Of a stretch of 64,000 bases of DNA, positions 1,457-52,680 are shown in pieces (positions within the stretch are counted from its first letter, which is position 1; each line of letters starts with the position of its first letter). A program made the translations under genes and the position numbers. The stretch is from a virus. The notes below the pieces were generated by a model. It was not told where the DNA came from and searched no databases. It worked only from the letters and a program-made list of their open reading frames with translations. The DNA lies in IMG/VR virus record IMGVR_UViG_3300046323_000234; one strand, given 5' to 3'.

Positions 1457-1723
1457 TTATTGTTTCTTATAAATAGAATCTGGTGGAAAATTAACTCTGG
1501 CAAATATATTATTATCAAATGAGTTAATTGAATGAATATTAAATATATCACTGTCAGGATATAATATTGATATCTCGCTGTACATCATATTATCCATAAA
1601 TATTTTTGTTAAAATTTTTGATACTTCCGAACAACATACCACACCACCATATTTAAATCTAATATTGTTTGGATTTGCATATTTTAAATTATAAAAATAA
1701 TTGGTTCTAAATCTCCTACCCAT
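1457..1723 (-). CDS. CxYIxEI micro-protein family member (divergent)
   Basis: CCSEVSKILTKIFMDNMMYSEI resembles CCNYIIKIVDTIFDNMNYAEV in 62101..62322. Confidence 0.6.
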   Translation of the reverse strand: MGRRFRTNYFYNLKYANPNNIRFKYGGVVCCSEVSKILTKIFMDNMMYSEISILYPDSDIFNIHSINSFDNNIFARVNFPPDSIYKKQ

Positions 1724-1728
1724 ATGAA

Positions 1729-3009
1729 TTATACCAATCCTCTTAAAACGTTTAAATAATTATTGATTTTTTCTCTAATCAATAAAATAATTGCTGGTTT
1801 GATTATTTTCATTAATTCTGTTTTAACGATATTAAATATAAATTCGCCAAACATTTCTTTAACGGTTTCTGAAAAACATTTAATTAGTTTTTTATTTCTA
1901 GCAATTTGTTGTTCTGGTGTTTGTGATGTATCAACAGTTCCATTATTATTTAATGCTTCAACCAAGAATAATAAAAATAACATTTGTGGGGATAATGATA
2001 CACATTTCAATAAGAAATTTTCAATAGCTTTTAATAATCTCTTAAAGAAATTATCTTTAGCAACATTCTTATTATCCAATGTTGAATCTTCATTAACAAA
2101 GCTTGTATCAAATAATGAATTAAATTTTAATGATATTTGTTGTGTATTTCCACTAATGCTTGCTGCTATTTCAGATAGATTGGATACTGTAATACTATTC
2201 TCCATTAATCCACAACCCAAATCTATATAGTTCTTTCCAGATTTAATATCTTGCAACTTTTGATTAATATTATTAATATCATCTGCCGATAATGTTAAAT
2301 CCTCATCTTTGGACATTTTATCCAATAACATATTCAATCGTTGCTCATTTTCGATTTGTTTTAGAGATTTGTTTTGAGTTTTTGTTTTAATATTAAAAAC
2401 CTCATTCAACATCTCTGTTGTAAACTCTTTTTTATTAATGATTTTTAGATTGGATATAAAGCTTGTAATGAACTCACCATTGGTCTGTGAAGTATTGATA
2501 GGGGTATAAATAAAGCTGTCTGTTGCATCATTATACTTTATATAAAGGTTTCCATAGGTCACATCTGAATTAGGGGCTGAAATCGCATTATATGAGGCCA
2601 AATCAAAACTTCCTGATACATAAATTGTTTCACCCAATGCACTATTTGGATTTGTTTTAAATTTTCCGTTTGGATCAACATTCTTTGCTGGAATTGTAAA
2701 TCCATTTGAGAAATATGATGGGATAACTTGGTCTGAATTTACAACAACACTTTGTGATTGTACAGATGTTTTAATATCTGGTTCAATAGTATCTGCAAAT
2801 TCAGTAAAAAACTTCCCAAGTACAAAATCAAGCGAACCACTTCCAATTAATGTTGTTAATAAATCCAACATAAACGGAATTGGTTCGTTTTTATTATTTA
2901 ATGATGGTAGTGAATTAGATGTCTTTTTTATTTTTGAACCAAATTCAGATATGGAAGAAAAAACAGATATTTCATTCACTACATCTAGTTTATCCTTTAT
3001 AATTCCCAT
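1729..3009 (-). CDS. Hypothetical protein, probably virion-associated
   Basis: 426-aa ORF in the late operon downstream of the motif at 3414-3421. Confidence 0.6.
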   Translation of the reverse strand: MGIIKDKLDVVNEISVFSSISEFGSKIKKTSNSLPSLNNKNEPIPFMLDLLTTLIGSGSLDFVLGKFFTEFADTIEPDIKTSVQSQSVVVNSDQVIPSYFSNGFTIPAKNVDPNGKFKTNPNSALGETIYVSGSFDLASYNAISAPNSDVTYGNLYIKYNDATDSFIYTPINTSQTNGEFITSFISNLKIINKKEFTTEMLNEVFNIKTKTQNKSLKQIENEQRLNMLLDKMSKDEDLTLSADDINNINQKLQDIKSGKNYIDLGCGLMENSITVSNLSEIAASISGNTQQISLKFNSLFDTSFVNEDSTLDNKNVAKDNFFKRLLKAIENFLLKCVSLSPQMLFLLFLVEALNNNGTVDTSQTPEQQIARNKKLIKCFSETVKEMFGEFIFNIVKTELMKIIKPAIILLIREKINNYLNVLRGLV

Positions 3010-3018
3010 ATTTTATTC

Positions 3019-3396
3019 TTAGTCCAATCCTTTTAATTTACTATCTTTTATTGTTTGTTTTAGTTCTTCAGCAAATGAATACAAATCCGTGTTTTCACCA
3101 TCTGAATCTTTTTTCTCGGCTTTGCCAATCAATTTAATGTCGTTATATATAATATCTTTCATTATTTTAACAACCTCAACCTTTTTACCTAAAATCTTTT
3201 CTCTTTTATCAATCAAATCTATAATCTGTTTACCAATCATTGCAATATCACCAATTTCACTCGCCTTTGGTTTCCATTTATTTAACAATAAAATAGTATC
3301 AGTACGAATGTTGTGAGTTTCGTTATAACATTCTTGCAAAATCTCCAACATGGATTCTTTTGTAAAATCTAATTTTTTCTTTGTTATGCGTGACAT
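3019..3396 (-). CDS. Hypothetical helical late protein
   Basis: ORF with CTATTTAT 17-18 nt upstream. Confidence 0.6.
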   Translation of the reverse strand: MSRITKKKLDFTKESMLEILQECYNETHNIRTDTILLLNKWKPKASEIGDIAMIGKQIIDLIDKREKILGKKVEVVKIMKDIIYNDIKLIGKAEKKDSDGENTDLYSFAEELKQTIKDSKLKGLD

Positions 3397-3441
3397 AGCT
3401 ATTTAGTTTATATATAAATAGTTATGATTTTAATATTTGCA

Positions 3442-3657
3442 TTATATTCGAATTTGTCTAAAAATATTTTTTATTCTTAAATTATAAAATAATCTAACGA
3501 GATATCCATCATCATACTTACTAATGTAACTAATTTTATTTATTTCATCATGCAATAAATGATTTTGAAACAAATCCAATAATATCTCTTCAACATATTT
3601 GCAGAAAACAATTTTTGGATTTGTTTCTATTTTGTAATTATTCTTCATCCCTTTCAA
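3442..3657 (-). CDS. CxYIxEI micro-protein family member
   Basis: FCKYVEEILLDLFQNHLLHDEINKI. Confidence 0.7.
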   Translation of the reverse strand: MKGMKNNYKIETNPKIVFCKYVEEILLDLFQNHLLHDEINKISYISKYDDGYLVRLFYNLRIKNIFRQIRI

Positions 3658-4333
3658 AAATAAAATTTGTTTTTGTTAAATCAACATCATTTGGTATTAT
3701 ATCCTTTAATTCTTTGTATTTATTTTTTATGTTGGACATTGTTTTTATTCTATGTGCTTCTTCAATTTGCCACATTATTGTTTCAAAGGTTGAGCCAAAT
3801 ACACAAATTAATTCATTCGATAATAAATTTTTATTAATTATAACAAGAATATCTTCAACATATTTACAAGCTAAATGATGATTATTATAACATTTATTAA
3901 CATCATATTCTAATTCTATTTTATTAGATGGTGTATTTAATTTATAAGAATGTGTGATATAATAGTGGTGATTTTTTACAATATTAATACTACTATTATT
4001 ATGATAATTAGGTCGAATTTTTGATAATAACTTTCTTCTATTATAATCCAACCACATATTTTTCCAATCCAATGAATCATGTAACATATTGAATTCATCA
4101 TGTAATAAATCTTTTTTTATTAAAAACATAATATCTTCAATATATAAACATGTTGAATTATATTGGATTGGTAATTTTTCATATCTCCACGTTTCTTTAC
4201 TACTTAGATTTAGAAGAAATTCATTTCTCTTAGCAGCATATGCTATATTATGATAATCATATTCTTCTGGTAATAAATGAATGTTTATATGATTTACAAT
4301 ATCTTCAATATATTTACAAACTAAATTATTCAT
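3638..4333 (-). CDS. Three-unit fusion of the CxYIxEI family
   Basis: VCKYIEDIVNHINIHLLPEE, TCLYIEDIMFLIKKDLLHDE and ACKYVEDILVIINKNLLSNE in one ORF. Confidence 0.75.
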   Translation of the reverse strand: MNNLVCKYIEDIVNHINIHLLPEEYDYHNIAYAAKRNEFLLNLSSKETWRYEKLPIQYNSTCLYIEDIMFLIKKDLLHDEFNMLHDSLDWKNMWLDYNRRKLLSKIRPNYHNNSSINIVKNHHYYITHSYKLNTPSNKIELEYDVNKCYNNHHLACKYVEDILVIINKNLLSNELICVFGSTFETIMWQIEEAHRIKTMSNIKNKYKELKDIIPNDVDLTKTNFIFERDEE

Positions 4334-5210
4334 TATCCATATTTATCATTTTTTTAGTAAGATAATAAATTGATTTATAATTTTTAATTGAATCACGAAT
4401 ATCTTTTGTTGTTAATCTTGTTTGTTCTTTTAAGAGCAACAACATTTTATTCTTTCTAAAGTTGGATGTAGATTGTTTACCATCATTATCTTCTGTAATT
4501 TCTTCATTGAATAATGTTTTCCAGTTAAATAAAATACTTATAATAGCTTCACCGACAATAATTTCATTTTTCTTTAGAAGGGTATTGGTTTTAATTTCCA
4601 ATCTAATCTGATCAACTACTGAATTAAAGAATTTATTTTCATCTTCTTCTTGTTGATCTGATGTATCCATTTCATAAGCATAATCATATCTAGTTTCAAC
4701 TTCATCAATAAACACTTCAAAATCAAGATTTTCAATTACTTCTTTTCTTGCATCTTTTGATCTATGTCTAAAATAATTTCTAACAATAGTTCCATAGTAA
4801 GAATAGGCACTGGCTATACAGGTTCTATATTCAAATTCAATCGAACCTTGGATTTCGTTTAATTTCTTTAATTGTTCAAGTTCAGTTTTATACTTAAAAT
4901 GTTTATGCTTTTCCCAATCATCTTCTGAATTTATTCTTCTATATTCAATCAGAAATTTATTATACTTATGCATATTTTCAATTAAAAAGGATAATCCATC
5001 CATTTCAAGTTCCACAATATCATGATTGCCAATATAATTTCTATATCGCTTCAAAATAGATGGAATCATCTTTTTAAATGCTTTTTTAAGTATTAGATTA
5101 TATATTTGATTTTTCGTTTCCGAATCACCCAATAAATAATCCATTACTGCTTGTTCTTCTCTTTCTCCAAAATACGGTTCTTTTAGTTTGACACCTTTCT
5201 TCCTACCCAT
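4326..5210 (-). CDS. Phage RNA polymerase sigma factor, gp55-like (late transcription)
   Basis: YFGEREEQAV..., ELEMDGLSFLIENMHKYN...AYSYYGTIVRNYF match the sigma region-2 pattern of phage late sigmas. Confidence 0.7.
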   Translation of the reverse strand: MGRKKGVKLKEPYFGEREEQAVMDYLLGDSETKNQIYNLILKKAFKKMIPSILKRYRNYIGNHDIVELEMDGLSFLIENMHKYNKFLIEYRRINSEDDWEKHKHFKYKTELEQLKKLNEIQGSIEFEYRTCIASAYSYYGTIVRNYFRHRSKDARKEVIENLDFEVFIDEVETRYDYAYEMDTSDQQEEDENKFFNSVVDQIRLEIKTNTLLKKNEIIVGEAIISILFNWKTLFNEEITEDNDGKQSTSNFRKNKMLLLLKEQTRLTTKDIRDSIKNYKSIYYLTKKMINMDNE

Positions 5211-5255
5211 TTAAATTTTAGTACATCTATATTATATTATTTTAGGTTGAAGAAA

Positions 5256-6074
5256 TTATTGTTCGATTAGAAAAAATTCTTTAGTTTCACGTTCTGTTTT
5301 GAAATAATACTCTCTTTTGGCAATTTCAAACCAATGATGAATTTCTTTTTGAATTAATGTCATTTGATATTGATGAAACAATGAATCAACTCTATTTGTT
5401 GTATGTAGATATAACAATTTTGACATTACCATAATATCCATATTGTTAAAGGCATATCTTAATAGTAGTTCATAATTAAAAGTTAATTTAATATTGGTTT
5501 TATATTTACCAACCTCAATAAAATCTTTTGTTTTAAATGCTCCACCAGTAACCAAGAAATATGTGTATTCTGTTAATGTCTGAAGTGATAATACACCAAG
5601 TTCACCAATCTGAATAATGCTTTTAGACCATGCACCATCATTTGAGTATCTAATAAATTCGTTTTTATCAGTCACTTCAACAGTCAATGGCAAGAATACC
5701 GATGCATCTGGATATGCTTTAATATATTCATGTAAATTCTTTGTATAGGCATCAGAAAGTTGATCATCAAACTCCAATATTGTAAAATATTCAGTTTTAA
5801 TATTATCAACAGCATAATTTACTTGTGAACAATAATCATTTTTTTGTTCATTTTCCAATAGCTCGATTTTAATTCCAAAATCAGATGCTTGAATATATTC
5901 AGTTAATTCATTTTTAATATCTGAATGATAAACCAACAATAGTGTTGGAATTTGTTTTTTATCTCGTTGATTTGTTACCGATGTTATTGCTTTAACCAAA
6001 TAACCTTTTATTTCTTCAGAAAATTTATGGATTGGTATAATAACTGTTAATGTCTTTTTCATATTATTGTTCAA
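5256..6074 (-). CDS. Glycosyltransferase family 2
   Basis: LTVIIPIH, AITSV, QVNYAV, ILEFDD, YELLLR. Confidence 0.8.
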   Translation of the reverse strand: MNNNMKKTLTVIIPIHKFSEEIKGYLVKAITSVTNQRDKKQIPTLLLVYHSDIKNELTEYIQASDFGIKIELLENEQKNDYCSQVNYAVDNIKTEYFTILEFDDQLSDAYTKNLHEYIKAYPDASVFLPLTVEVTDKNEFIRYSNDGAWSKSIIQIGELGVLSLQTLTEYTYFLVTGGAFKTKDFIEVGKYKTNIKLTFNYELLLRYAFNNMDIMVMSKLLYLHTTNRVDSLFHQYQMTLIQKEIHHWFEIAKREYYFKTERETKEFFLIEQ

Positions 6075-10604: not shown

Positions 10605-10612
10605 CTATTTAT
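10605..10612 (+). promoter_or_regulatory. Candidate late promoter CTATTTAT
   Basis: 19 nt upstream of ATG 10632; the same motif precedes other structural genes. Confidence 0.55.
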
Positions 10613-10631: not shown

Positions 10632-11210
10632 ATGTACAAATTATATTCTGACAAATCCAAAAAATTTACTTGCAATATTGATATAACTGGTGCTTCATTA
10701 AAAGAGTGTGAGGCTAGATTAGTGTTAGAAACTAATAGTGTTAATCTATTATATTATGGTAAAATTGATAGCAATGGTTTATGTGAAGTGGAGATTGATA
10801 AATTGAAGGATTTATTACCAGAAAACACCAAGGGTAAATTAAAATTAGAGGTAATTGCTGATAAACAATTTTTTACTGCGTGGGAAAGTAAATTTGTTGT
10901 TGAACAGCAAAAAACTGTTAAAATTACCGAAATGGTTGATAATGATAGTTTTGTTAACACTACCAAAAAGGTTAGTGTTATAGTTGAAGATGATGATTTA
11001 TCTGATGATTTAATATTTGAAAATACTGATAAAGTAAATAAGCAAATTGAAATTTTAGAAAGACAAATAATTACAAAAAATATAAAGGACGGTAAGAAAT
11101 TTAATCAAATATTCGAATATTATAGTGATATAATTAAGGAGAAAAAATTATTATCTGAGACTGAAATGAAAAAAATAAAAAATATTTTAATAGCAAAACA
11201 CAATTTTTAA
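10632..11210 (+). CDS. Hypothetical late protein (beta-sandwich-like N-terminus, helical C-terminus)
   Basis: First ORF of the plus-strand structural operon. Confidence 0.6.
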   Translation: MYKLYSDKSKKFTCNIDITGASLKECEARLVLETNSVNLLYYGKIDSNGLCEVEIDKLKDLLPENTKGKLKLEVIADKQFFTAWESKFVVEQQKTVKITEMVDNDSFVNTTKKVSVIVEDDDLSDDLIFENTDKVNKQIEILERQIITKNIKDGKKFNQIFEYYSDIIKEKKLLSETEMKKIKNILIAKHNF

Positions 11211-11214
11211 ATAA

Positions 11215-12861
11215 ATGGCAAAAATTACAGATCCCGATTTATTAAATGATAATAGCGTTGATAATAATACAACGGAAGTTTTTATTGATACTACAGCCAA
11301 AACGGTTAAATTAACAGAAATTGGAAACTTATCATCAGATGGTTTAACCATTAAATCATTATATTCATTTTTAAAAGAAGAATGGAGAGTTGACCCCCAA
11401 ACTAAAAATTTGGCTGCGTTTGATTTTCCAATGAATCCAATTACTGATGAATTTTTTGAATTCGTTGGTGGATGGTCACTACTTAATAGTGCAGCCATTC
11501 AATTAGTTAGAGATGGTGGATTCCTTGTTAGAAATACATCGGGAAATTTAACATCACACTTTACTGGTATTAAAACTATCGGTACAGTTGAAACAAATGA
11601 CCAAGTTTATTTTAATCAAGGAAATGGTGCTGATGATTTTGTTTATTTAGGCCCTGTTAATGAAGTTGTACAAATTATATCAGATCCAAATGGTGATGGT
11701 GCTTATGGTGATGGTTATGATAGATCAACAACATTCCAAATATTCTTGCGTGAACAAGGTCAAGTATATTCACAATCATCAATTGATGCAATTGGTGCAA
11801 CTGATTTATTAGCACCAAAGGTATTTGCATTTGCGTTAAATACATCAACCGATCTAAAAATTGATGAAACTGATGCAACAATAACTGGTTCAACACCATA
11901 TAATCAAATTAATATTAAATATTTTGACCAAGCATATACTCGTGATGTTGATTCATCAACCGATAGAAATTTTGGAATTGTTATTGACGTTGGAACACAC
12001 TCTGGTGTTGATGGTTCAGCATCAATAAATGGTAGAACATTAACAACAGCAGAAGCTGGAATTACTGGTTTATTATATACTGGTGGTACATTAACAATAC
12101 ATGAAGGTGCAAACGCTGGTATATATACCATAAGTGGTACACCAACATCAAATATTATCACTATTACAACTGCATTTATAAGTGCAAATACAAATCAATC
12201 ATTTACTCTACAAAGAGCAACTGGTGTTATTGCAACTGCTGAACAAATATATGAAAAAGTTCAATATCAATTAAGATTAAATGCCGATATTGATGCAACT
12301 GACCAATCCGTTATTGGTAAAACTGCTGACGAATTACTTAATTTCGTTGGTGATACATTGGTTTGTGGTTCAAGTATTCCAACCAATCCAAATGGTGGTG
12401 GTTCTGGTGTTATAATTGAAGGTTTCCAATCTTCTGATACAAACAGAATTCAATTTTATGATAATAGTGGTATTACTCGTACATATCCATTTGTTGCCGT
12501 TTTAACATTGAATTTTGGATCAAACTTAGTTTCCGATGCGAGTGCAAAATATTGGGTTTATTTTACCACATTACCTGGTGCTGGTAATGATTTTAACGAA
12601 GCTGGTGCATTATTAGTTGATGATAACGCTGGTGCAGATATTACTGGTAATATTTCAGGTCAAGCAACAATTGAACATACATTTAACTATGATGGTAACG
12701 TTCAAGGTGGTAGAACACCAGCTACTGATGCAGCAATTACAGTTGTGGGTATTGGATTAAGTACTGGCCAATATGTAAAAGCAACTGGTACAATTGGTAG
12801 AAGTACAACAAATAGTATATCATTGGTTGCAGCTTTGGAAAGAAATTATCAAAACGTATAA
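11215..12861 (+). CDS. Virion structural/appendage protein
   Basis: Thr/Gly/Asp-rich beta-type composition. N-terminal region (SLYSFLKEEW...FEFVGGW) resembles that of 16333..17550. Confidence 0.6.
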   Translation: MAKITDPDLLNDNSVDNNTTEVFIDTTAKTVKLTEIGNLSSDGLTIKSLYSFLKEEWRVDPQTKNLAAFDFPMNPITDEFFEFVGGWSLLNSAAIQLVRDGGFLVRNTSGNLTSHFTGIKTIGTVETNDQVYFNQGNGADDFVYLGPVNEVVQIISDPNGDGAYGDGYDRSTTFQIFLREQGQVYSQSSIDAIGATDLLAPKVFAFALNTSTDLKIDETDATITGSTPYNQINIKYFDQAYTRDVDSSTDRNFGIVIDVGTHSGVDGSASINGRTLTTAEAGITGLLYTGGTLTIHEGANAGIYTISGTPTSNIITITTAFISANTNQSFTLQRATGVIATAEQIYEKVQYQLRLNADIDATDQSVIGKTADELLNFVGDTLVCGSSIPTNPNGGGSGVIIEGFQSSDTNRIQFYDNSGITRTYPFVAVLTLNFGSNLVSDASAKYWVYFTTLPGAGNDFNEAGALLVDDNAGADITGNISGQATIEHTFNYDGNVQGGRTPATDAAITVVGIGLSTGQYVKATGTIGRSTTNSISLVAALERNYQNV

Positions 12862-12871
12862 AAAATAATTA

Positions 12872-15800
12872 ATGTCAACATTTACAATTACTAGTCCAGT
12901 TAATATTGATAGTATTACCAAATTAGGTACAAAAACAGCAGCATGGACTAGATCAACTACAACAGCAACAGTAACATTGGTTAATCATGGTATGATAACC
13001 AGTGATGTTATATTTGTAACTGCAACATCAGATGTAACTGCTATAACACTAAGTGCTAAAACAGTTACACTATTAAACGTAACTGGATTCACATTTACAT
13101 GTTTAAATGCTGGTGCAGTATCTGGTACAATTACATTTACTGCAACCGATAATTATAATATAAATGGTGGTACATTAACAATTGATCAAGATAGTAGATA
13201 TGGATTAAATCAAGATGTTGGTTCAACATATAATAATATAACACTATCTGCAACATTGGGTGGTAGTGTTGAAATTGATGCGAGAAATGTTAGATTAATA
13301 CCTTATAACGCTGGAAGTGGTACATTACCAGCATTAAATACTATTATATCTGGTGGAACAAATAATTTAGCAACTGGTAAATTGATTGGTGTATGGAGTA
13401 ATATTGCATCAGGTGCTACAGTAAGTGGTGCAACAATACCAGCAAGTGGATTAATAAAAATTAAAGAATGGAATGGTGTACCTTTTACGATTGGTGCATT
13501 ATCCAATATTACAGCTAGTGCCATAAGTGGTGATACTGCTGGTTGGATTGAAATTGTCGGTAATGAATTTGGTGTTGCAACAGTAAACCGTTTAAATACG
13601 TTTAGAATGCGTGGTGAATGGTTTAGTGTCGGTACAACAAATGGAACTAGAGCAACAATATATCAATTACCAACAAGTGGTAGTTTAATGTATTTACCAG
13701 GTGTTTGGGTTGAAACAGATGTTGCATCAGGTAGTTATGAATTTTATCCATGTGCTGGTACATTAACAGCACTTGTCGCAAATATTGCGACAGATAGACT
13801 TCGTGGTAAATTTTGTTGGATAACTGCCAATGGTGGCCATTTAAGATTTGGACACGATGGTACGAACAGTACTGGTGGTTATATACCACCAACAGGTTTA
13901 AGAATTAGAATACCAAATATTATAACACAAAATTGTGTTATTGGATTTAAAAATATAAATGTATTACCTAGTGTTACATTAGCGACTAGATATGATTTTT
14001 TAACTACTGGTGGTGGTGTAATTGAAATAGATAAAGCTGCATTAAACTGGTATCCATCATTTGCACAGCCATATTCTGTTAATATTTCAAATACTAGTAT
14101 TGCAACACAATTATTAGTATCAGAAATTGCAGCACCATTAACTTGGAATAATATTGGTGTTGGACAAGAAGCTGCAAACGCACAATTTGGACTATCAATG
14201 GCAACATGTTTTGCTGGTGGAACAATTTCTAATAGTAGATTTACATCAGCAACATTAGCTGGATCTGGTAGATATATTGGTACATTTTCTGATTTGGATG
14301 GTTTTACATTTAATAATACAGAATTTTTAGGAATGGTCGCTAGAGGTAATGCTACAACTGGTGCTATGACATTAACAAGGGTTAATAATACAGTTTTTAA
14401 TAATACAGTATTGGGTGATGGTCGTGCTTTTATGACAACATGTACAAATGTTGATTTTAATAATACAATTTATTATGATCATCCAGCAACAACAACTGCA
14501 ACAGCCAATCCAATGTACATATTTGATTTAGCGAGTAGTTGTGTTGATATTAAAATGGATGGTATTTCATTTAGTGGATTAACATTAACACAACCATATA
14601 GTGGTATATTAAACATAGGTGCTGCTGGTTGTACAAATATTAAATTAAGAAATTTAGGAACATATAGTCAACCTTTGGATTTAGGTGCGCCAAGAATTGA
14701 TAATGTTGCGTGGTCAAGAGTTACAACTGTTGGAACAATATCAGCAACATCACACAATTTAAAAGTTAACGATATTATATATGTAACCAACACCACTGAC
14801 GTATCAGCGATTGCAGTTGGTGCTAAAACTATTGCATCTGCACCAACAAATAATATATTTACATTTGCAGTGACAAATGGTGGTGCAATTAATGGTAGTT
14901 TATCATATTATCCAACAATGTCAGCATTATTGTTTGCATTAGCTGCTGGTGCAGCAGCTAATACTGTTGAACTTAAAAGATGTTATACACCACATACAAG
15001 AACAAACATATATACAGCAGATAACTCTAGTAAAAATATCGAACTTAAAAATGTCTTTGGTGATTATAATATTAACGTACCATTAACACCACAATTAAAT
15101 GGATCACAAAATGGTATTGGTGGTAGATATTCATTAGCTGCACAAACATCTGTTTATGGTACACACTGGCTTGATTATTATATTGCGCCACCAACACTAT
15201 CAGCAACAACTGTTACTTGGTCAAGAGTTACAACAACCGCAACTATTACATCACCCAAACATGGTTTGGTTACTGGTGATTTAATAAATGTAATAACATC
15301 ATCATCTGAATCTACAATTATATTAGGTAATAAAACATTAACAGTATTAAGTGGTGAAACATTTACATTTACTTGTTTAAATGCTGGTGCTACTAGTGGT
15401 ACATTATCATTTATACCACATAATGGTAGAATTGGTCTTGTTATGAATGAATCAACAACTGAAACAGTTGATCAATATACAATTGATAATGGTACACCAG
15501 CATTTACATCGGCTGGTTCGTTATTTATGCCCACCGTTAGTCAACAAATTACATTTACATCACCAGAATATATACTTGGACATAAATCATTTCCGATTGC
15601 TGAACCATTTATTATTGGTGGTTTATTAAATAATCATCATGTATTATATGCATTAGATAGAAATGATGGTAATGGTTTTAGCTCTTTTTATAATTTATAT
15701 TATAATGTAAGTGCTAATACTGGATCAAATGGTTCAACAAACGTAATAGTTCGGTCAACATCAGGTATTACAGTTGGTGATTATGTATTTGGATCAAACA

Positions 15801-16309
15801 TTGCACCAAATGCATATGTTACTGGAATTACAAATACAACAACATTTGTTGTTAATAAACCAAATATTGGTGTGGTATCTGGATTATTAAGATTTAATCG
15901 TTTACCATTCGAATCCAATATTGGTGCGTCTGGTGCTAAAATGAAAATTAGAATTACCACAATATCTGGAAATACTAATGCAATATCCGCATTATATATT
16001 CCAACATATAGTGATAATACATCTAGAGCATATCAATATCAATTAGATCCACAATTAACAATAACACTTACTGGATTGGTTAATCCAACAGAGGTTAGGG
16101 TATTTAGTGCATCAACAACAACTGAATTAGCTGGTCAAGAAACAATTACTAGTGGTGAATTTAGTTTTGAAGTCGCTAGTGGTAGCTTAATTGATATTAG
16201 TATATTATCATTAGCTTATCAAAATCTAAGATTAAAAAATTACAATGCAACAAGTGATGCCACAATACCAATCCAACAAATAGTTGACAGACAGTATTTA
16301 AATCCATAA
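12872..16309 (+). CDS. Large tail fibre/spike-like protein with a beta-helix-like segment and three ~67-aa inserted repeats
   Basis: 1145 aa, very Thr/Gly/Asn-rich. W[ST]R.TT..T....H.....D.I.V repeats at about 12938, 14705 and 15212; FNNT repeats. Confidence 0.65.
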   Translation: MSTFTITSPVNIDSITKLGTKTAAWTRSTTTATVTLVNHGMITSDVIFVTATSDVTAITLSAKTVTLLNVTGFTFTCLNAGAVSGTITFTATDNYNINGGTLTIDQDSRYGLNQDVGSTYNNITLSATLGGSVEIDARNVRLIPYNAGSGTLPALNTIISGGTNNLATGKLIGVWSNIASGATVSGATIPASGLIKIKEWNGVPFTIGALSNITASAISGDTAGWIEIVGNEFGVATVNRLNTFRMRGEWFSVGTTNGTRATIYQLPTSGSLMYLPGVWVETDVASGSYEFYPCAGTLTALVANIATDRLRGKFCWITANGGHLRFGHDGTNSTGGYIPPTGLRIRIPNIITQNCVIGFKNINVLPSVTLATRYDFLTTGGGVIEIDKAALNWYPSFAQPYSVNISNTSIATQLLVSEIAAPLTWNNIGVGQEAANAQFGLSMATCFAGGTISNSRFTSATLAGSGRYIGTFSDLDGFTFNNTEFLGMVARGNATTGAMTLTRVNNTVFNNTVLGDGRAFMTTCTNVDFNNTIYYDHPATTTATANPMYIFDLASSCVDIKMDGISFSGLTLTQPYSGILNIGAAGCTNIKLRNLGTYSQPLDLGAPRIDNVAWSRVTTVGTISATSHNLKVNDIIYVTNTTDVSAIAVGAKTIASAPTNNIFTFAVTNGGAINGSLSYYPTMSALLFALAAGAAANTVELKRCYTPHTRTNIYTADNSSKNIELKNVFGDYNINVPLTPQLNGSQNGIGGRYSLAAQTSVYGTHWLDYYIAPPTLSATTVTWSRVTTTATITSPKHGLVTGDLINVITSSSESTIILGNKTLTVLSGETFTFTCLNAGATSGTLSFIPHNGRIGLVMNESTTETVDQYTIDNGTPAFTSAGSLFMPTVSQQITFTSPEYILGHKSFPIAEPFIIGGLLNNHHVLYALDRNDGNGFSSFYNLYYNVSANTGSNGSTNVIVRSTSGITVGDYVFGSNIAPNAYVTGITNTTTFVVNKPNIGVVSGLLRFNRLPFESNIGASGAKMKIRITTISGNTNAISALYIPTYSDNTSRAYQYQLDPQLTITLTGLVNPTEVRVFSASTTTELAGQETITSGEFSFEVASGSLIDISILSLAYQNLRLKNYNATSDATIPIQQIVDRQYLNP

Positions 16310-16332
16310 CTTTGTTGATTAAACATATATAA

Positions 16333-17550
16333 ATGGCAGCAGTAGTTTCATTCGATGGAGTTAATAAAACAATTACAGTAACAGATACTGGTGATATTAA
16401 TATAACCGTTGATGAAATTTACTCTAGATGGAAAGATTGGGTATTTGATTATCCACAATATGAAGCTGCTTTTAGATTTGTGGGTGGTGACCCGACTGTT
16501 GGATTAGATAGTTTAGGTGTTACCTATTTCATTATTAATGGATGGAAGTTTAAACCATATGAAGGTAATCACGTCTTGGACATTGTTGGTAACTTATATC
16601 AAGAAGGTGGTGGTAATCCATATTTAACAACTACTGGTTATACTATTGTAATTAGACAAAACGTATCCAATATCGTTGAGATAAAAAGTGTTACAACTGA
16701 AAGTAATGAAAAAATTGAATACTTAGGTTCAATATTTTTAGATGAATCATCAATATATTCAAGTGCTATATATCCAAACGGAACAATTTCAAATCCAATA
16801 AATAATGTTGCTGGTGCGTTAACATTGGCCAATTATTATGGATTTAATACAATAAAAGTATTAACAAATATTGGTTTTTCTGGAATATCAAATACAACGA
16901 TAAGTAATATTAATTTTATTGGGCAAAATCCAAATATTCAATTAACACATTATAATAATATATTATTTAATAATGTATTATTTGATAACTTTATTATTGA
17001 TTCAGATTTTATTAATAGTGAAATAATTATTAAAAATTCGACAATTATTAATTCATTAAATATGAATGGCACTATTAATAGTTCACAATTAAAGGGTGTT
17101 ATTAAAATAGATGATAATTTAGTAATTGCAGATTCATATTCGACTAGATTAAACTCTGTTGTATTATCTCCAATCATTAATATGAATTTATCAAATACAA
17201 CAAGCCTTCAAATCAAAAATCATTCAGGTGATTTAAATATTATTAATTGTGATACTGTTAATTCATTTGCAAATATTGAATTAATTAGTGGAAATATTAG
17301 ATTGGATTCAACTTGTACTGATGGAACAATTATATTAAGAGGTTTAGGGACATTAGAAGATAATAGCGGTGTTAATATCGTAATGAATAGACGTGGTTTC
17401 TTGATTCCAGAAAAGGTTGAAGATATACACCAAATACATGGATTGGATGCTGCAAATCCAATGGTTGTTTCTAGAACAAGTAGAACTGCTGGTAATATAA
17501 CACAAACATTAGGTAATGTTGCTGATGTCGTAACAGTAACTAGAGTTTAA
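16333..17550 (+). CDS. Virion structural protein with beta-helix-like region
   Basis: IYSRWKDW...FRFVGGDP...YFIINGW N-terminus; GTISNPINNVAGAL followed by Asn/Ile-rich repeats. Confidence 0.6.
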   Translation: MAAVVSFDGVNKTITVTDTGDINITVDEIYSRWKDWVFDYPQYEAAFRFVGGDPTVGLDSLGVTYFIINGWKFKPYEGNHVLDIVGNLYQEGGGNPYLTTTGYTIVIRQNVSNIVEIKSVTTESNEKIEYLGSIFLDESSIYSSAIYPNGTISNPINNVAGALTLANYYGFNTIKVLTNIGFSGISNTTISNINFIGQNPNIQLTHYNNILFNNVLFDNFIIDSDFINSEIIIKNSTIINSLNMNGTINSSQLKGVIKIDDNLVIADSYSTRLNSVVLSPIINMNLSNTTSLQIKNHSGDLNIINCDTVNSFANIELISGNIRLDSTCTDGTIILRGLGTLEDNSGVNIVMNRRGFLIPEKVEDIHQIHGLDAANPMVVSRTSRTAGNITQTLGNVADVVTVTRV

Positions 17551-17553
17551 AAA

Positions 17554-17949
17554 ATGAACAATGTTGATCCATACTCAATTGCTACAAATGGCCTATTAAC
17601 ATCAAATACAAATAATTATTTTGTTACTGATGGTTTAGGTTATTATACTATTCAAATTTCGGAAGAAATTATTGAAATTGATGTACCTACAGTAAGAAAT
17701 GGTAATTGGGTTGGTAGATTACCTAAGAGGGGTAGAAAGCAATCTGAAAAAATCTTAGTTAAAGAAATTACTGTTACAATTAATTTAGATTCACATAAAG
17801 AATATTTTAAATCTAAAATTCAATTAACTGATGTTAATCTCACAGTAACCAATGCAATAATTAATGGTGATGAAATTACATTAACTATTCATAATCCAAC
17901 CTTAAATATTGATGAAACTAGAATAGTAAAACTGAATGTTGTTTTATAA
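17554..17949 (+). CDS. Hypothetical protein, last gene of the appendage operon
   Basis: ORF starts 3 nt after the previous stop. Confidence 0.55.
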   Translation: MNNVDPYSIATNGLLTSNTNNYFVTDGLGYYTIQISEEIIEIDVPTVRNGNWVGRLPKRGRKQSEKILVKEITVTINLDSHKEYFKSKIQLTDVNLTVTNAIINGDEITLTIHNPTLNIDETRIVKLNVVL

Positions 17950-18126
17950 AAAAACTCTGTAACTACTATATTTATATAGTTCCTTTTCAAAAACATAAAT
18001 CTCAAATCCAATAATTGTATTTGTATTATTATTTTCAAATCTAACTAAATCGTAAATAGTATTTGGTTCGATATGATTTTTAATTATATCAAAAACATAA
18101 ATGGAACATTGGATTTGTTGTTGCAT
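17944..18126 (-). CDS. Small hypothetical protein, possible divergent CxYIxEI member
   Basis: QCSIYVFDIIKNHIEPN is a weak match; same size class as the family. Confidence 0.45.
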   Translation of the reverse strand: MQQQIQCSIYVFDIIKNHIEPNTIYDLVRFENNNTNTIIGFEIYVFEKELYKYSSYRVFL

Positions 18127-18130
18127 TATT

Positions 18131-18580
18131 TTAATAATGATAATATTTATGATTTGGTAAATAATTTTTTATTACCATAATAATTCTACTTCTATCAACA
18201 TCATTACCCACATCACCACCATAACTAGTAAAATAATATGGTAAATATCTTGCAATATATAAACCAATATGATTATATTGAATTGTACTATTTATATAAA
18301 TAATTTCATAATCAATAAAAAATATTTTAATATCATTAATATAATATTCAAAATTATAATCTTCATCTATAATATTAAATTTTCCCAACTGTGCTATTTT
18401 ATTTAAAATAATTTTAAATGATTCACAATATAATGATATTCCATCACTATTTTCTATTCTATATATTTCATTATATTCATCCAAAATAAATGAATTATTT
18501 ATTATTTTTTGATAAATATCAGCAATATGATAACACATTTTAAAATCATTTATAATGTGGTTTTCTTTGTTCCAATCCAT
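18131..18580 (-). CDS. CxYIxEI micro-protein family member with longer tail
   Basis: MCYHIADIYQKIINNSFILDEYNEI. Confidence 0.65.
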   Translation of the reverse strand: MDWNKENHIINDFKMCYHIADIYQKIINNSFILDEYNEIYRIENSDGISLYCESFKIILNKIAQLGKFNIIDEDYNFEYYINDIKIFFIDYEIIYINSTIQYNHIGLYIARYLPYYFTSYGGDVGNDVDRSRIIMVIKNYLPNHKYYHY

Positions 18581-19790
18581 TTGATGTTATTTCAATAATC
18601 TCAATATTTAATTTAAATTCATTAATTGTTTTTGCGTTGGCATATGAGAAACCAGATTTGATTCCATTGGTTAATCTATTTAAATCCAATTCAGATTTTT
18701 CTTTGGATTTAAAATCAACAGTAAATTCAAATCCTTCTGGTAATATCTCCTTATTAATATTATTAACCTTATTATTCAATAATGCCATTGATTCAGATGC
18801 CATACCTCTATAATATGCCTTTATTGGATTTGATTTATTATTATGAATTTTTTCCTTATCAATAAATTGTATTTTGGTTGTTTTAAAATCGATATAATTA
18901 TTATTTATTAAATCTTCCGTATATGAATATTCATCTAAATAATGATTAACGTTTTTGGATTTGTGCTCTATGAATATTGGAGAGTTTGAATAATAATCGC
19001 CAGCAAAGAATCCACCCATCATAACAAAATCAGCCCCACAAGCTAATGCTTTTAATATATCTGATGATGTTTTAATTCCACCATCAGCAACTATATAATA
19101 ATCTTCGTTTGATAATCTATCATTGGCTATTTCTAGCAGCATAGAAGCTGCTGGACGATATATTCCAGCCACATCCGATGTGGAACACGCTGAACCAGTA
19201 GAAACCCCTACACGCACGAATTTAACACCTAAATTGACCAAGTATTCAACATGTTCTTTACATGTGACATTACCACACATAATTTCAATATTAATACTTC
19301 TATGCACAATATTTTGTTTGATATAATTTAGTTCTTTAATAACTGGTTCAACAAGAGTGTTTGATCCATTGGCTGTATCTATACAAATCAAAAAATTATA
19401 ATCTAATAGATTATCTTCCATCACCATTTTGGTAAAAGCTGTTAATCTTTCTTTATAGTCGTTAACACCAATCGAAAAACTTACTAACTTACTTGTATTG
19501 TTTTTAATTAATAATCTAATATCTGAAATCATTTCATCAATTTGATTAAATCTATGTAAAACACCTTGCTGATTATTTTTATCAAGATAATTACATAAAT
19601 CAAATCCAGATATATCAAACATCGGTGCTGAAAAGATTAAACCCATATTAATCTTATTGGATTTAATTAAACCAAACTGTATGGATTGGTTTAGATTAAT
19701 TTCATCAGAAAAACGTGATTTGATTTGTGATATTTGTCTACTGAAAAGTGAAATATCGTTATATGTTAATTCTTTTGTTATATTTTTCAT
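18546..19790 (-). CDS. IMP dehydrogenase/GMP reductase family enzyme lacking CBS domains
   Basis: CIDTANG, CGNVT, RVGVSTGSACST (catalytic Cys), ADGGIK, ALACGADFVMMGGFFAG, YRGMAS. guaB versus guaC cannot be resolved by eye. Confidence 0.9.
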   Translation of the reverse strand: MKNITKELTYNDISLFSRQISQIKSRFSDEINLNQSIQFGLIKSNKINMGLIFSAPMFDISGFDLCNYLDKNNQQGVLHRFNQIDEMISDIRLLIKNNTSKLVSFSIGVNDYKERLTAFTKMVMEDNLLDYNFLICIDTANGSNTLVEPVIKELNYIKQNIVHRSINIEIMCGNVTCKEHVEYLVNLGVKFVRVGVSTGSACSTSDVAGIYRPAASMLLEIANDRLSNEDYYIVADGGIKTSSDILKALACGADFVMMGGFFAGDYYSNSPIFIEHKSKNVNHYLDEYSYTEDLINNNYIDFKTTKIQFIDKEKIHNNKSNPIKAYYRGMASESMALLNNKVNNINKEILPEGFEFTVDFKSKEKSELDLNRLTNGIKSGFSYANAKTINEFKLNIEIIEITSNGLEQRKPHYK

Positions 19791-19843: not shown

Positions 19844-19851
19844 CTATTTAT
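19844..19851 (+). promoter_or_regulatory. Candidate late promoter CTATTTAT
   Basis: 36 nt upstream of the baseplate hub gene. Confidence 0.5.
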
Positions 19852-20920: not shown

Positions 20921-20928
20921 CTATTTAT
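20921..20928 (+). promoter_or_regulatory. Candidate late promoter CTATTTAT
   Basis: 20 nt upstream of the tape measure ATG, just after a terminator. Confidence 0.6.
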
Positions 20929-23516: not shown

Positions 23517-24274
23517 TCGATTTTGTATAAATTCCATTAAAAATATTTTTTAAGCAAAAGTGCTTAATTTGCGTTTAAATGAGGTTTGATAAAAATAGTT
23601 GAAAAAATAAATATAACTTTCTGTACTTTTGTCATTAAAATTTCGTAATATATAGTATAGGGTATACATTTTTAACTCTATATCAACATAAAATATAAGT
23701 CTTATAATATAATATAAAGCATATGAAATAAATATAATAATATTAGATATATTAATATAAATTATAAAGTATATTCTGAATAATATTAGATATAAAAATA
23801 TATTGGAAGTACTCAACATATTATGCTTGATATTATCTACTAACATTAAATATATAACTGAATAATATAAACTTATTATATTATTTTGTCTTTTATAAAG
23901 TATATTATAAGTTGCCCATAACTATGCCCTTTTGAATTATATTCAAAATTCCACATCAAATCCAATAAATTCTTATTTAATTATAATAATAAGTTATATT
24001 CCAATCTAATAAAATTATTTAATTTATTCTTGGAATAGTAATATTACAATTTAACAAAATGTTTTATAATAAATAATAATATACTTCAATTGTAAAATAT
24101 GATAATTAATTCACTTCAACCAGCATATAGTTATAATCAATTTAATAATATATTTAGCTACCTACTTACAGGTAGGTAAGTTATAATTAACATTATTTAG
24201 TATATAATTGTAAATTATATTATTTGTGAAAAACTATTTATTATTAGATTGGTTAATATCAATTAGAATAATAG
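23517..24274. other. 758-bp extremely AT-rich non-coding region (candidate origin or ncRNA locus)
   Basis: No credible ORF. Contains the 26-bp element (23638-23663), a TACCTAC/GTAGGTA hairpin (24159-24178) and CTATTTAT at 24234. Confidence 0.5.
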
Positions 24275-34577: not shown

Positions 34578-34596
34578 TAGTCTATTTATATATAAT

Positions 34597-47574: not shown

Positions 47575-47612
47575 CAAAACATACATACTTCTTTATAAAC
47601 AGTTTATTTGAT

Positions 47613-48089: not shown

Positions 48090-48153
48090 TATTGTACGAT
48101 GAACCAATCCAAAAGTTAGTAAAATTATAATTAAAAAAATTGAAATGTAGAAA

Positions 48154-48327: not shown

Positions 48328-48430
48328 AATATGTGGGGAGCATGGATTGACCCTGATGATAATTTCTTTGAAAGGATTACTAAAAATGCTGGCCCACGTG
48401 ATTAAATAAATTATATAAAATTTATACAAT

Positions 48431-50121: not shown

Positions 50122-50184
50122 CGGCTGCGTGTATGAAACGTAATGGATTATAACCACGAAACTTAATACGAAGTAGAAACGTAG
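50114..50184 (+). repeat. attC-like site, left arm only
   Basis: GCATATAAC overlaps the stop codon of the upstream ORF and is followed by a GC-richer arm with no matching right arm. Confidence 0.45.
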
Positions 50185-50189
50185 CATTT

Positions 50190-50279
50190 GATATAACGGT
50201 TGTGGATATGAGAAAAGAAAAAATACCAAATTCAAAAATAGAAAAAGATTTTTTACTTTCTTATATCCGTTGTTATCGG
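50190..50279 (+). repeat. attC-like site (complete imperfect palindrome)
   Basis: ATAAC-ggttgt-GGATATgAGAAA..AAAAAAT ... ATTTTTT..TTTCTtATATCC-gtt-GTTAT. Confidence 0.65.
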
Positions 50280-50353
50280 TCTGTAAAATTTCAATAATTA
50301 TTTTTTTTGAGGGGAGGAATTAATCAATTTAATGTTTTAATAAAAACAACAAA

Positions 50354-50443
50354 ATGGAAAATATATTTGTGAATTACGAAATAGCAAAACAACTAATGAA
50401 ATACGGATTTGCTGAAAAATGTGTGGCTTTGCACATACTTTAA
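50354..50443 (+). pseudogene. Probably truncated ORF fused into a partial attC-like site
   Basis: MENIFVNYEIAKQLMKYGFAEKCVALHIL stop; the last codons are part of the tgtggct/agccaca stem. Confidence 0.45.
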
Positions 50444-50494
50444 AATTATAGATAAATTTATTTAGCCACATTACTTATACACTTTGTTATAGGT
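50418..50494 (+). repeat. attC-like site lacking its outer left end
   Basis: tgtggct (50422) / agccaca (50464) stem, then ttacttatacacttt-GTTATAGG. Confidence 0.5.
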
Positions 50495-50516
50495 ATGTAA
50501 AATAAAACGGATTAAT

Positions 50517-50729
50517 ATGAACAATAAAATAAATAACAAAATGAATAAGGAAACAAGAAGTTTTATTTGGGGCTTAATTTTAGTCCTAATCTGTGGAAGC
50601 GGATTTGTTGTTCACATAATCGAAATTAAAATCGGGAAGCCAAGAGATTGGTATGATTGGACATTAATGGTATTAACTCTTTACGGATTAATCTCTGGTG
50701 GATGGCGTGTCTTTCGTGCTATCGATTAG
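50517..50729 (+). CDS. Two-TM membrane protein (cassette-like gene)
   Basis: Two hydrophobic helices; bounded by GTTATAGG upstream and CCGATAAC downstream. Confidence 0.7.
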   Translation: MNNKINNKMNKETRSFIWGLILVLICGSGFVVHIIEIKIGKPRDWYDWTLMVLTLYGLISGGWRVFRAID

Positions 50730-50733
50730 GGTT

Positions 50734-50832
50734 GCCGATAACGTTTTGCGTATATACGAGGTACGCCTTAACGAAATTTTACATTATAAACAAATGCTTG
50801 TAGGCGTATCTTGTATATACGCTGTTATAAGC
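50734..50832 (+). repeat. attC-like site (best copy)
   Basis: GCCGATAAC...GTTATAAGC ends; 21-bp inner stem gcgtatatacgaggtacgcct / aggcgtatcttgtatatacgc with 19/21 Watson-Crick pairs and 2 G-T pairs. Confidence 0.75.
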
Positions 50833-50848
50833 TGTAAAAATTACGATT

Positions 50849-50995
50849 ATGGCAACAGTTTACAAAGTAGAAGTAGTATCTCATTGGATTAGCTACTCAA
50901 AGGAAGAACTCGAAAAGATACTGACAGAAGCAGTAAAGGAGATTGAACGTGAAAAAGGAAATGAGATACAGATTAGAGTGGAAGAACGTAAGTAA
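50849..50995 (+). CDS. 48-aa cassette-like gene
   Basis: Read by hand: MATVYKVEVVSHWISYSKEELEKILTEAVKEIEREKGNEIQIRVEERK; flanked by 21-bp inverted repeats. Confidence 0.65.
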   Translation: MATVYKVEVVSHWISYSKEELEKILTEAVKEIEREKGNEIQIRVEERK

Positions 50996-51118
50996 TTTTT
51001 ATTGCTTATAACGATTATATATAAGCAATAAAATATAAAGTATTGAAAATTAATATTTTACAACACGAAAACTACTGACTATTACGAAATTTGTAAACAA
51101 AAATTGAAATATTAACAC

Positions 51119-51730
51119 ATGTTATCAAACCTAGCAAATATCATCTCAGATGATTCATTATTTAATTATAGTAATATCCCCTATATAAACTATTATAGTT
51201 CAACAGACACAATAATAGATACTAAATTACCAACACTAATAATTGGTTATAAACTAGCAAAACAAATATACAATTCTGGGATTGATATATTAAATAAGGT
51301 TGTTGCACCAAACCAAAAATATTGGACTTTTACAGCTGAGGAAAGAAATTTAGATTATATAAAAGATACCAAGCATTTTGTTGATAATGTAATAGGATAT
51401 TATCAATCCAATCAGAAATATATCAATTATGATCCATTATTTGCAAACAGTAAATCAATATATGATTTTATTGATTATATAAAAAATAAAGAGATAAAAT
51501 CATATAAGAATAAATATTCATTATATATAAAAACTGAAGATACAATTTTTGGATTTGATATGAGAATAATAGATAAATACTATCCAAATAACAATTTAAT
51601 AAATATTATATCAAACAAATCCAATTATTATCTTGATGATAATAATCTTATATTAAGCAGTTGTATAAAAAAATATGGAAATGAAATAAGTAATTGTAAA
51701 AAAATAATTGTTAATCTAATATCTGAATGA
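51119..51730 (+). CDS. Hypothetical protein
   Basis: 203-aa ORF (LPTLIIGY, YWTF..EE). Confidence 0.65.
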   Translation: MLSNLANIISDDSLFNYSNIPYINYYSSTDTIIDTKLPTLIIGYKLAKQIYNSGIDILNKVVAPNQKYWTFTAEERNLDYIKDTKHFVDNVIGYYQSNQKYINYDPLFANSKSIYDFIDYIKNKEIKSYKNKYSLYIKTEDTIFGFDMRIIDKYYPNNNLINIISNKSNYYLDDNNLILSSCIKKYGNEISNCKKIIVNLISE

Positions 51731-51974
51731 AACAACATATTATAAAAGACTATAAACTAAAAGTCCAACATGATTTTCTCGTACTAGAGGCGGTATTTAT
51801 ATCATCACAAATTCAAAATATTTGGATTCAATATTAAATGAAATTGTTTTTAATAATTTCACAAAAGAAGAATATATTGAGATGTTATCAAATATGCGTG
51901 AAAATCCAAATGAACAGACTTCAAGTTATAAAACGGCTATTAATGGTTTATTCGTTAACGTTTTAAAATTATAA
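51727..51974 (+). pseudogene. Frameshifted CxYIxEI-family member
   Basis: The ATG 51727 frame stops after 36 codons. The -1 frame encodes IYIITNSKYLDSILNEIVFNNFTKEE, homologous to IYIQLSTNSLYLDEILRMILNNLTNEE in the next gene. Confidence 0.6.
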
Positions 51975-51975
51975 T

Positions 51976-52680
51976 ATGGTACTTAGAATTATTAAATGTA
52001 ATAATATATTGTTAAAATCAATATCTGGGATTATTCCTAGTGATATTTTAAGTCCAAATGGTAAATTTATTTATATTCAGTTATCAACTAATAGTTTATA
52101 TTTAGATGAGATTTTACGGATGATTTTAAATAATTTAACCAACGAAGAAAATTCGGATTTGATGGGGTGTATAAAAACATATAAGTTTATTAGCGAAAAT
52201 AATCATTATCAAAAGAGATTACTACATGGTTATTATTGTAAAATAATTGAATTGTAATATATTACCAGATGATAAAAATAGTTAATAATTGCTCAAGTTA
52301 TTTAAATCCAATCCTAAATCAGATTCAAGATTCGTTATTACCAATTGAAATATTTGATTATATTGGTTATGAAATTTATATGAAAATTGGAAAACAGTTG
52401 TTAAATGTAAATGGTGGTAAAATATATTTAGAAACAGCTAGATATTATATAATAAATGATTTGATATATGTTAAATGCGTTTTAAATGAATAGTTTAAAT
52501 GTTGATATTAAATTTAAGTGCTGTAAACATGTTCAAGATATTATTATATTGATAGATAAAAACCTTTTAATAGATGAAAGATCAGATTGGTTTGATGTTA
52601 CCAGAATCTATTATCGTGAAAAATTAGAAAATAAATTCAATGTGATTGGAGATTTAATTTATTTGGAAATAACCGATTAA
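51976..52680 (+). CDS. Three CxYIxEI-family micro-proteins (51976-52257, 52269-52493, 52486-52680)
   Basis: NSLYLDEILRMILNNLTNEE; CSSYLNPILNQIQDSLLPIEI; CCKHVQDIIILIDKNLLIDE. Confidence 0.7.

Follow-up and report, generated by a model that had tools for sequence, protein, structure and literature searches.

The internal proteins (IPs) of T-even phages have a conserved N-terminal segment and highly diverse bodies, are encoded at variable loci, and are interpreted as a co-evolving anti-defence repertoire (PMC3012670). Here we describe a family of mini-protein genes in a 64,000-nucleotide stretch of viral DNA (IMG/VR record IMGVR_UViG_3300046323_000234; the whole stretch is called the window below), in which 14 genes form a tandem array and further copies sit at other gene junctions, labelled A to D. 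The family resembles IPI, IPII and IPIII in being small and in joining a constant part to a diverse body in variable loci, a likeness of description only, and it differs from them in number and placement, with dozens of copies spread over many junctions instead of a single ip locus.

Morons and the genes of hyperplastic regions are likewise co-oriented, placed at operon ends and found between genes that are adjacent in relatives, with cargo that differs from one relative to another. Here, unlike in morons, one family fills many sites and expands in tandem. Scans for promoters and terminators remain at chance level. Lineage-specific expansion, copy-number change and rapid divergence are also features of the multigene families (MGFs) of African swine fever virus, the ankyrin/BTB families of poxviruses and the paralogues of giant viruses, but the units described here are about 60 aa long, belong to a bacteriophage and occupy internal junctions instead of genome ends. 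Large paralogous families are uncommon in tailed phages, and our look at the literature for paralogue families of jumbo phages brought up nothing relevant. Integron cassettes, too, form rows of small, co-oriented, promoter-less genes, whereas no attC-like hairpins lie between or around the genes of this family and its spacers are overlaps or at most 47 nt.

A preliminary description of the window had proposed that a single micro-gene family, either a selfish mini-element or a strongly selected effector family, had colonised at least four junctions besides the array. Our analysis indicates that these are probably real protein-coding genes of one fast-evolving, lineage-restricted mini-protein family, seeded long ago and changed since by birth and death, and not autonomous mobile elements. 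A fast-evolving accessory family fits the data better than a jumping element does.

The window (26% G+C) belongs to an uncultured large phage and comes from a contig of 171,483 bp, and its phage-like genes include a GIY-YIG homing endonuclease, a 5'-3' exonuclease, an IMPDH/GMP-reductase-like gene and genes for large fibre-like proteins. When a core segment and the array were used as nucleotide queries against the phage collection, nothing matched. Searches with core proteins led to large, complete and distant phages of 266 and 366 kb, called G3 and G1 below (G1 being the 366-kb relative). Two closer phages were used for comparison: a sister phage, represented by loci L055, L073 and L071 of JGI sample 3300050711, which was not among the returns of a metagenome scan with the exonuclease as query, and L074, a relative 63% identical to the window phage in a 132-aa marker.

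Reference array and family module

59867-62862, + strand: reference array, 14 tandem co-oriented genes of 61-105 aa

The array module, C-K-Y-I-L-E-I-H-Q-L-I-V-D-N-L-T-x-x-E-I, is N-terminal and is followed by a variable linker and then by an I-x-Y beta motif. Its Cys (or Ser) lies 4 to 40 residues from the N-terminus, at a position that varies between members. Between array copies the module DNA (~69 nt) is 60-84% identical; the Ile, Leu and Val codons change synonymously, Ile and Cys remain invariant despite such changes, codon position 2 is the least variable, and the ratio of nonsynonymous to synonymous variation (pN/pS) is 0.62. The family genes are tightly packed with ATGA/TAATG overlaps, and these start/stop overlaps, together with the substitution pattern, argue that the open reading frames (ORFs) are translated genes. 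The proteins are rich in aromatic residues and have isoelectric points of 4.1-9.8. The family makes up about 20-23 of the roughly 100 genes of the window and has further members beyond it.

AlphaFold2 predicted helices at residues 8-19 and 23-32 and strands at 48-51 and 54-57 for an array member, with a predicted local distance difference test score (pLDDT) of 61. For the junction-B gene 3445-3657, modelled with a 56-sequence alignment, it predicted helices at 20-33 and 36-42 and strands at 43-48 and 51-56 (pLDDT 70). These models suggest, with moderate confidence, that array and junction-B members have a common core of two module helices followed by a beta hairpin. A homodimer prediction for an array member scored 0.01, which gave no answer and speaks neither for nor against.

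Dispersed members at junctions B and D

We ran a hidden Markov model (HMM) built on the array alone against all 746 stop-to-stop ORFs (>=30 aa) of the window, using 10x shuffled ORFs as a control; the best shuffled ORF scored 12.4 bits. An enlarged profile (ARR+SEC) combined the window array with a second array on contig L052, described below, and its best decoy scored 12.0 bits. The genes recovered at junctions B and D are as follows.

3638-4333, - strand: junction B gene 1, 231 aa, three fused family units (residues 1-56, 57-150, 151-231)
3442-3657, - strand: junction B gene 2, 71 aa, followed by 20 nt, then CTATTTAT at 3414-3421, then core gene 3019-3396
51727-51975, + strand: junction D gene 1, with family module NSKYLDSILNEIVFNNFTKEEYIEML inside ORF 51774-51971
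51976-52257, + strand: junction D gene 2, 93 aa, module near residue 40, Ser/Leu in place of Cys
52269-52493, + strand: junction D gene 3, 74 aa, divergent module NNCSSYLNPILNQIQDSLLPIEIFDY
52486-52680, + strand: junction D gene 4, 64 aa, followed by 21 nt, then CTATTTAT at 52702-52709, then core gene 52728-52910

At junction B, the stop-to-stop ORF of the fused gene (3641-4342, - strand) matched the array HMM with E 1.7e-6 and 24 bits and the ARR+SEC profile with 32.6 bits. Its three units also match one another (E 5e-5 to 5e-8), and the gene overlaps the stop of core gene 4326-5210 by 8 nt. The second gene (ORF 3445-3675, - strand) reached E 1.4e-3 with the array HMM and 21.6 bits with ARR+SEC, and it is the only member with a BLASTP-significant orthologue in the sister phage (42% identity, E 2e-5).

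Two of the four junction D genes were clear matches: ORF 52486-52677 (array HMM E 1.4e-5; ARR+SEC 22.3 bits) and ORF 51967-52254 (array HMM E 1e-3; module HMM 17.7 bits; ARR+SEC 19.3 bits). ORF 51774-51971 reached E 0.015 with the array HMM, 16.7 bits with ARR+SEC and 12.7 bits with a profile of the sister array, the latter two scores being above every decoy. This module ORF and the ATG-initiated ORF 51727-51834 are one base apart in frame across a run of T at 51774-51777; candidate explanations of the split are a pseudogene, a homopolymer error in the assembly, a slip site, or a truncated product that starts at TTG 51822. ORF 52251-52490 is weak to borderline on its own (array HMM E 0.087; 10.6 bits in a separate profile search), and gene 52269-52493 is flanked by two confirmed members and has the C-terminal motif in common with them. 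The module-only and enlarged profiles bear out the array-HMM matches at both junctions.

Divergent candidates at junctions A and C

The preliminary description had listed ORFs at nine dispersed positions, all of which exist. The array HMM recovered six of them (3638-4333, 3442-3657 and the four within 51727-52680) and failed to recover the following three; only with these does one arrive at the total of about 23 ORFs and 25 modules given in that description.

1457-1723, - strand: junction A, 88 aa, fills the gap between core genes 1729-3009 and 1056-1454 with spacers of 5 and 2 nt
18131-18580, - strand: junction C gene 1, 149 aa, overlaps the stop of the IMPDH/GMP-reductase-like gene 18546-19790 by 35 nt
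17944-18126, - strand: junction C gene 2, 60 aa, last gene of its unit, convergent with 17554-17949

The ORF at junction A (1460-1759) gave E 2.8 with the array HMM and 12.5 bits with the wider A2 profile, a score reached in 2 of 20 shuffled databases (empirical p ~0.1). Gene 1457-1723 matches a sister gene at the same junction (L055 9430-9822; BLASTP E 1e-4), and the A+sA profile matches the sX, sC and sD clusters above decoys, as the sA profile matches other clusters above every decoy; it is probably a divergent family member. Gene 17944-18126 is comparable: its ORF (17947-18168) had an array-HMM E value of 3.2 and no signal in array-derived profiles, its counterpart at the same junction in the sister phage (L073 1974-2141) was matched by BLASTP with E 1e-4, and the sister junction-C (sC) profile matches the sD and sX clusters above decoys. 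This gene, too, probably represents a divergent member.

Family membership is least certain for 18131-18580. It has an N-terminal module-like segment, MCYHIADIYQKIINNSFILDEYNE, and its ORF (18134-18586) was absent from the match list of the array HMM; the module alone scored 10.0 bits, which is chance level (5 hits in 20 shuffled databases). In the sister phage this site holds a 138-aa gene (L073 1388-1801), which matched 18131-18580 only with a BLASTP E value of 0.1. An hhalign comparison of the A2 and A3 profiles returned 1% probability, and because the poor A3 alignment mis-registers 18131-18580, comparisons based on A3 are uninformative. A result of 81% probability for A2 against A4 was set aside because the two alignments share two sequences. 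We also considered whether 18131-18580 is the orthologue of the ORF after the IMPDH-like gene in G3; this pairing (E 0.55) is unsupported.

When per-cluster profiles built from window and sister sequences were searched against a pooled ORF set with 10x decoys, above-decoy matches outside the query cluster fell nearly all in other family clusters. Strict iterative profile searches, which admitted an ORF at E < 1e-3 or at a score above the best of 10x decoys, halted at 23-26 ORFs and did not recruit the divergent clusters.

The same junctions in the sister phage

All five junctions hold family-like genes in the sister phage, with copy numbers as follows.

Junction A: window 1; sister 2 family-like, plus one 190-aa gene outside the family assignment
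Junction B: window 2; sister 2
Junction C: window 2; sister 7
Junction D: window 4; sister 12
Array: window 14 and the endonuclease; sister 5, endonuclease absent

The 29 flanking core genes have a median identity of 74.6% between the two phages, whereas family members reach ~40% identity at best, and this only over part of their length, and are related to their sister counterparts at the protein level only. A family gene is the best sister match for 16 window members, and in 12 of these 16 it lies at the same junction. With the five junctions already filled in the sister, there is no presence/absence polymorphism of sites between the two phages, although copy number within sites differs. The comparison thus shows turnover directly: the same sites, changed copy numbers and almost no orthologues in the family, next to neighbouring genes that are ~75% identical. 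The earlier proposal of a strongly selected effector family is compatible with divergence this much faster than that of the flanking genes.

In a poorly resolved tree of the modules (27 columns), location labels cluster, with 12 changes compared to 15.7 for shuffled labels and none of 200 shuffles as low. The clusters are not reciprocally monophyletic, and the window and L052 arrays interleave.

The sister phage contains a further array of 10 genes (L055 14026-15885) with the module S-P-H-C-x-I-I-N-x-I-L-L-D-I. It maps outside the start of the window, and its site is empty in L074.

Distribution and sites in distant relatives

The array profile, run against protein sets of 5.8 billion and 1.84 billion sequences, found only this phage population. 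Two extra matches to the array profile lay on L052, a 9.2-kb contig that shares its samples of origin and its G+C with the window. Positions 2477-4576 of this contig hold the second array, with seven members between a KTSC-domain gene and an RlaP-type nucleotidyltransferase gene, broken at 3061-3750 by an unrelated 229-aa gene. In the complete relatives G1 and G3 and in L074, seven narrow and broad profiles found nothing above decoys. Members thus turned up in this phage and the sister phage only. These searches support the conclusion, drawn from sequence comparison, that the family is lineage-specific and private to a narrow phage lineage, as the preliminary description had anticipated; the alternative it raised, that all relatives might carry the same genes at these positions, is not borne out, since the distant relatives have no detectable member.

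The preliminary description had also suggested looking for empty sites, and these were found: at junctions A and B and at the array site the flanking genes are 14-60 bp apart in at least one relative.

Junction A (1729-3009 / 1056-1454): gaps of 14-28 bp in G1, G3, L005 and L006; unrelated 105-aa gene in L074
Junction B (4326-5210 / 3019-3396): gaps of 40-60 bp in G1, L005, L006, L007 and L074
Array site (RecA-like gene / exonuclease gene): 54 bp in G1; ~1.07 kb of unrelated cargo in G3, namely a phosphoesterase-like gene and a 67-aa ORF
Junction C (after the IMPDH-like gene): at a synteny breakpoint
Junction D (51119-51730 / 52728-52910): 998 bp in the window; in G1 the BLAST hits are ~190 bp apart and the called genes leave ~20 bp

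Cluster layout and a promoter-like motif

Each cluster is co-oriented with its upstream gene, and the spacers are overlaps or 0-47 nt, which agrees with the arrangement reported earlier. The placement at operon ends or before a promoter motif was likewise confirmed: clusters A, B and D each end directly before CTATTTAT(A), at 1469-1476(-), 3414-3421(-) and 52702-52709(+), respectively, and cluster C closes the unit that converges on 17554-17949. At junction A the motif of the downstream gene lies within the last codons of 1457-1723, as had been noticed before. The array site lies between the RecA-like gene and the 5'-3' exonuclease gene.

Overall, CTATTTAT is not enriched in the window (14 matches vs. 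10.7 expected). Ten of the 14 are co-oriented, and nine of those ten sit 8-40 nt upstream of a gene start. The positions of the (A/C)CTATTTATA motif before gene starts are as follows.

1469-1476 and 3414-3421, - strand
10605-10612, 19844-19851, 20921-20928, 24234-24241 and 34582-34589
52702-52709, + strand
54133-54140

The sister phage keeps the motif upstream of the orthologous genes, and G1 and G3 do so in part. With this placement and conservation it behaves like a promoter element, and (A/C)CTATTTATA is probably a phage promoter element. Scans with sigma-70 promoter and terminator consensus sequences gave matches at chance level in this AT-rich DNA and placed nothing at the cluster borders.

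Signs of mobility and alternative explanations

The cluster boundaries show no target-site duplication (the longest shared direct words are 7-8 nt, p 0.34-0.66) and no terminal inverted repeats (longest shared inverted words 6-9 nt, p 0.10-0.96). No attC-like hairpins (ATAAC N60-90 GTTAT) were found within or flanking any cluster. Copies at different loci have no detectable DNA similarity, DNA repeats being seen only inside the array, and no mobilising gene is common to the clusters. A GIY-YIG gene is present beside the array only.

58645-59865, + strand: GIY-YIG-type homing endonuclease, directly upstream of the array (phrog_314, E 6.7e-22)

The endonuclease is missing from the corresponding site of the sister phage and of the relatives examined (in G1 the site is the 54-bp gap), so it is not part of the spread of the family but a separate, later arrival. 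Taken together, the lack of target-site duplications, terminal repeats, hairpins and a shared mobilising gene leaves the selfish-element reading unsupported.

The only two ATAAC...GTTAT hairpins of the window (50193-50276 and 50738-50828) are imperfect, 84-91 nt long and ~1 kb upstream of cluster D; both are unassociated with family genes.

Dispersal over six or more sites found empty in distant relatives, an array that adjoins a GIY-YIG endonuclease, attC-like hairpins upstream of cluster D and clusters that are not reciprocally monophyletic are what can be said for a selfish mini-element that inserts at transcription-unit boundaries, perhaps by way of the adjacent endonuclease or an integron-like system. 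We nevertheless regard such an element as very unlikely. The words shared by the boundaries (7-9 nt) are no longer than chance (p 0.1-0.96), the genes fill their inserts to within 0-47 nt, which leaves no room for recombination sites, the clusters have neither internal nor flanking hairpins, and the sister array has no endonuclease. The same sites are filled in both phages and best matches run from site to site, indicating that movement, if any, ceased long ago. The idea of ongoing insertion in the preliminary description, and the target-site signatures that might have accompanied it, find no support in boundaries free of repeats, in copies that are not near-identical and in sister sites that are already occupied. 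It is somewhat easier to imagine, though still improbable, that the three weak ORFs are unrelated orphans in accessory hot spots whose module-like segments merely reflect the amphipathic Ile/Leu/Asn pattern of an AT-rich proteome. Array profiles miss all three, their scores lie inside the shuffled-control range, and the A2/A3 comparison gave only 1% probability, albeit on a poor alignment; moreover, the unrelated cargo at junction A of L074 and at the array site of G3 indicates that the junctions take any cargo. Two of the three ORFs, however, have sister homologues at the same junction (E 1e-4), and what the sister A- and C-type profiles match above every decoy is almost exclusively other family clusters.

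The genes could also encode virion-packaged internal proteins of the T-even type, with the module serving as a tag for capsid targeting or processing and the variable body acting against host defences once injected. We think this unlikely. By analogy, a constant N-terminal part, a hypervariable body and polymorphic loci would match the family, and the promoter-like motifs found just downstream of three clusters precede probable structural genes. The T4 prohead protease cleaves at (L/I)xE, and core-type modules contain a similar I-L-E; many divergent members, however, carry D, N or S at the E position, and while a ClpP-family gene is present nearby, no prohead protease of the T4 type was identified. 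Nor is the module fixed at the N-terminus, since its Cys can lie anywhere between residues 4 and 40 and 3638-4333 carries three modules internally, and the prediction of two helices packed on a hairpin suggests that its ~25 aa would form part of a folded core rather than a leader. Least probable of all, and in our opinion hardly credible, is that the ORFs are not genes but repeated DNA with some other role, such as binding sites or recombination repeats, that is open by chance. The module is indeed a ~69-nt DNA repeat with 60-84% identity, but its units share one frame and one orientation with coupled starts and stops, Ile and Cys are kept through synonymous changes with codon position 2 varying least, and dispersed and sister members retain the pattern at the protein level in DNA that has no detectable similarity.

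Evolution and possible role of the family

For the fast-evolving accessory family that we favour, we infer that copies reached permissive, moron-type sites in a small number of old seeding events, which preceded the split of the window and sister phages and followed the split of their lineage from the 63%-identity relatives. Since then, local tandem duplication, deletion, fusion (as in the three-unit 231-aa protein) and decay (as in the frameshifted gene at 51727) would have produced the present clusters. More tentatively, the constant module may act as a scaffold or handle for a constant partner, and the variable tail may meet a changing target, yielding a repertoire of host-interaction or counter-defence proteins.

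Several points weigh against this reading. Tandem duplication does not explain the first arrival at at least six separate sites, and the polarity of the change (gain vs. loss) depends on three outgroup lineages with 30-63% identity. L052 and the two sister contigs are assumed to belong to single genomes. Three of the nine dispersed ORFs are tied to the family only through transitive, near-threshold sequence links. The module pN/pS of 0.62 is a weak sign of constraint, and the fast divergence could stem from relaxed instead of diversifying selection. The family proteins have no match in Pfam or PHROG, the structure models (pLDDT 61 and 70) are only moderately confident, and fold searches came up empty: Foldseek found no match in the PDB, the best Z in a wide VIA-align search was 2.9, and the best E value in BFVD was 0.68.

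A bolder possibility, which we consider rather unlikely, is a combinatorially diversifying repertoire of ~60-aa binders in which a constant two-helix handle sits on one fixed partner from phage or host, variable hairpin tails engage varied host targets, and the operon ends serve as "nurseries" where birth and death renew the set. If this were true, the targets might be, for example, defence or surface-remodelling proteins, each major transcription unit would co-express some members, and the family would be a phage equivalent of the multigene families known from eukaryotic viruses with large DNA genomes. The window and its sister offer a natural system for studying how phages generate and maintain variable repertoires of small proteins and which genome positions tolerate them, and they illustrate that "colonised junctions" need not mean a mobile element.

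Other variable regions

Near the array, a near-perfect palindrome of 41 nt (58591-58631; 19 pairs, 3-nt loop) lies between the RecA-like gene and the GIY-YIG endonuclease gene. The RecA-like gene itself (57528-58586) is only 33% identical to the sister copy while the flanking genes are 74-84% identical, which suggests allele replacement at a hot spot.

In the sister phage, an ART-PolyVal (ADP-ribosyltransferase-like) gene (L055 10412-10966) is inserted after the 132-aa gene; the neighbours of this site in the window are only 11 bp apart (1044/1056). A resolvase gene and a Cas12f1-like/TnpB gene, an IS607-like pair, lie beside the sister glycosyltransferase region (L071 1-1777).

The 548-aa protein of the fibre-like module encoded at 11215-12861, within the module 10632-17550, is 78% identical to a G1 protein encoded at 216.7-218.4 kb. 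Other genes shared with G1 are 30-50% identical and located elsewhere in that genome, and the case looks like an exchange of a host-range module.

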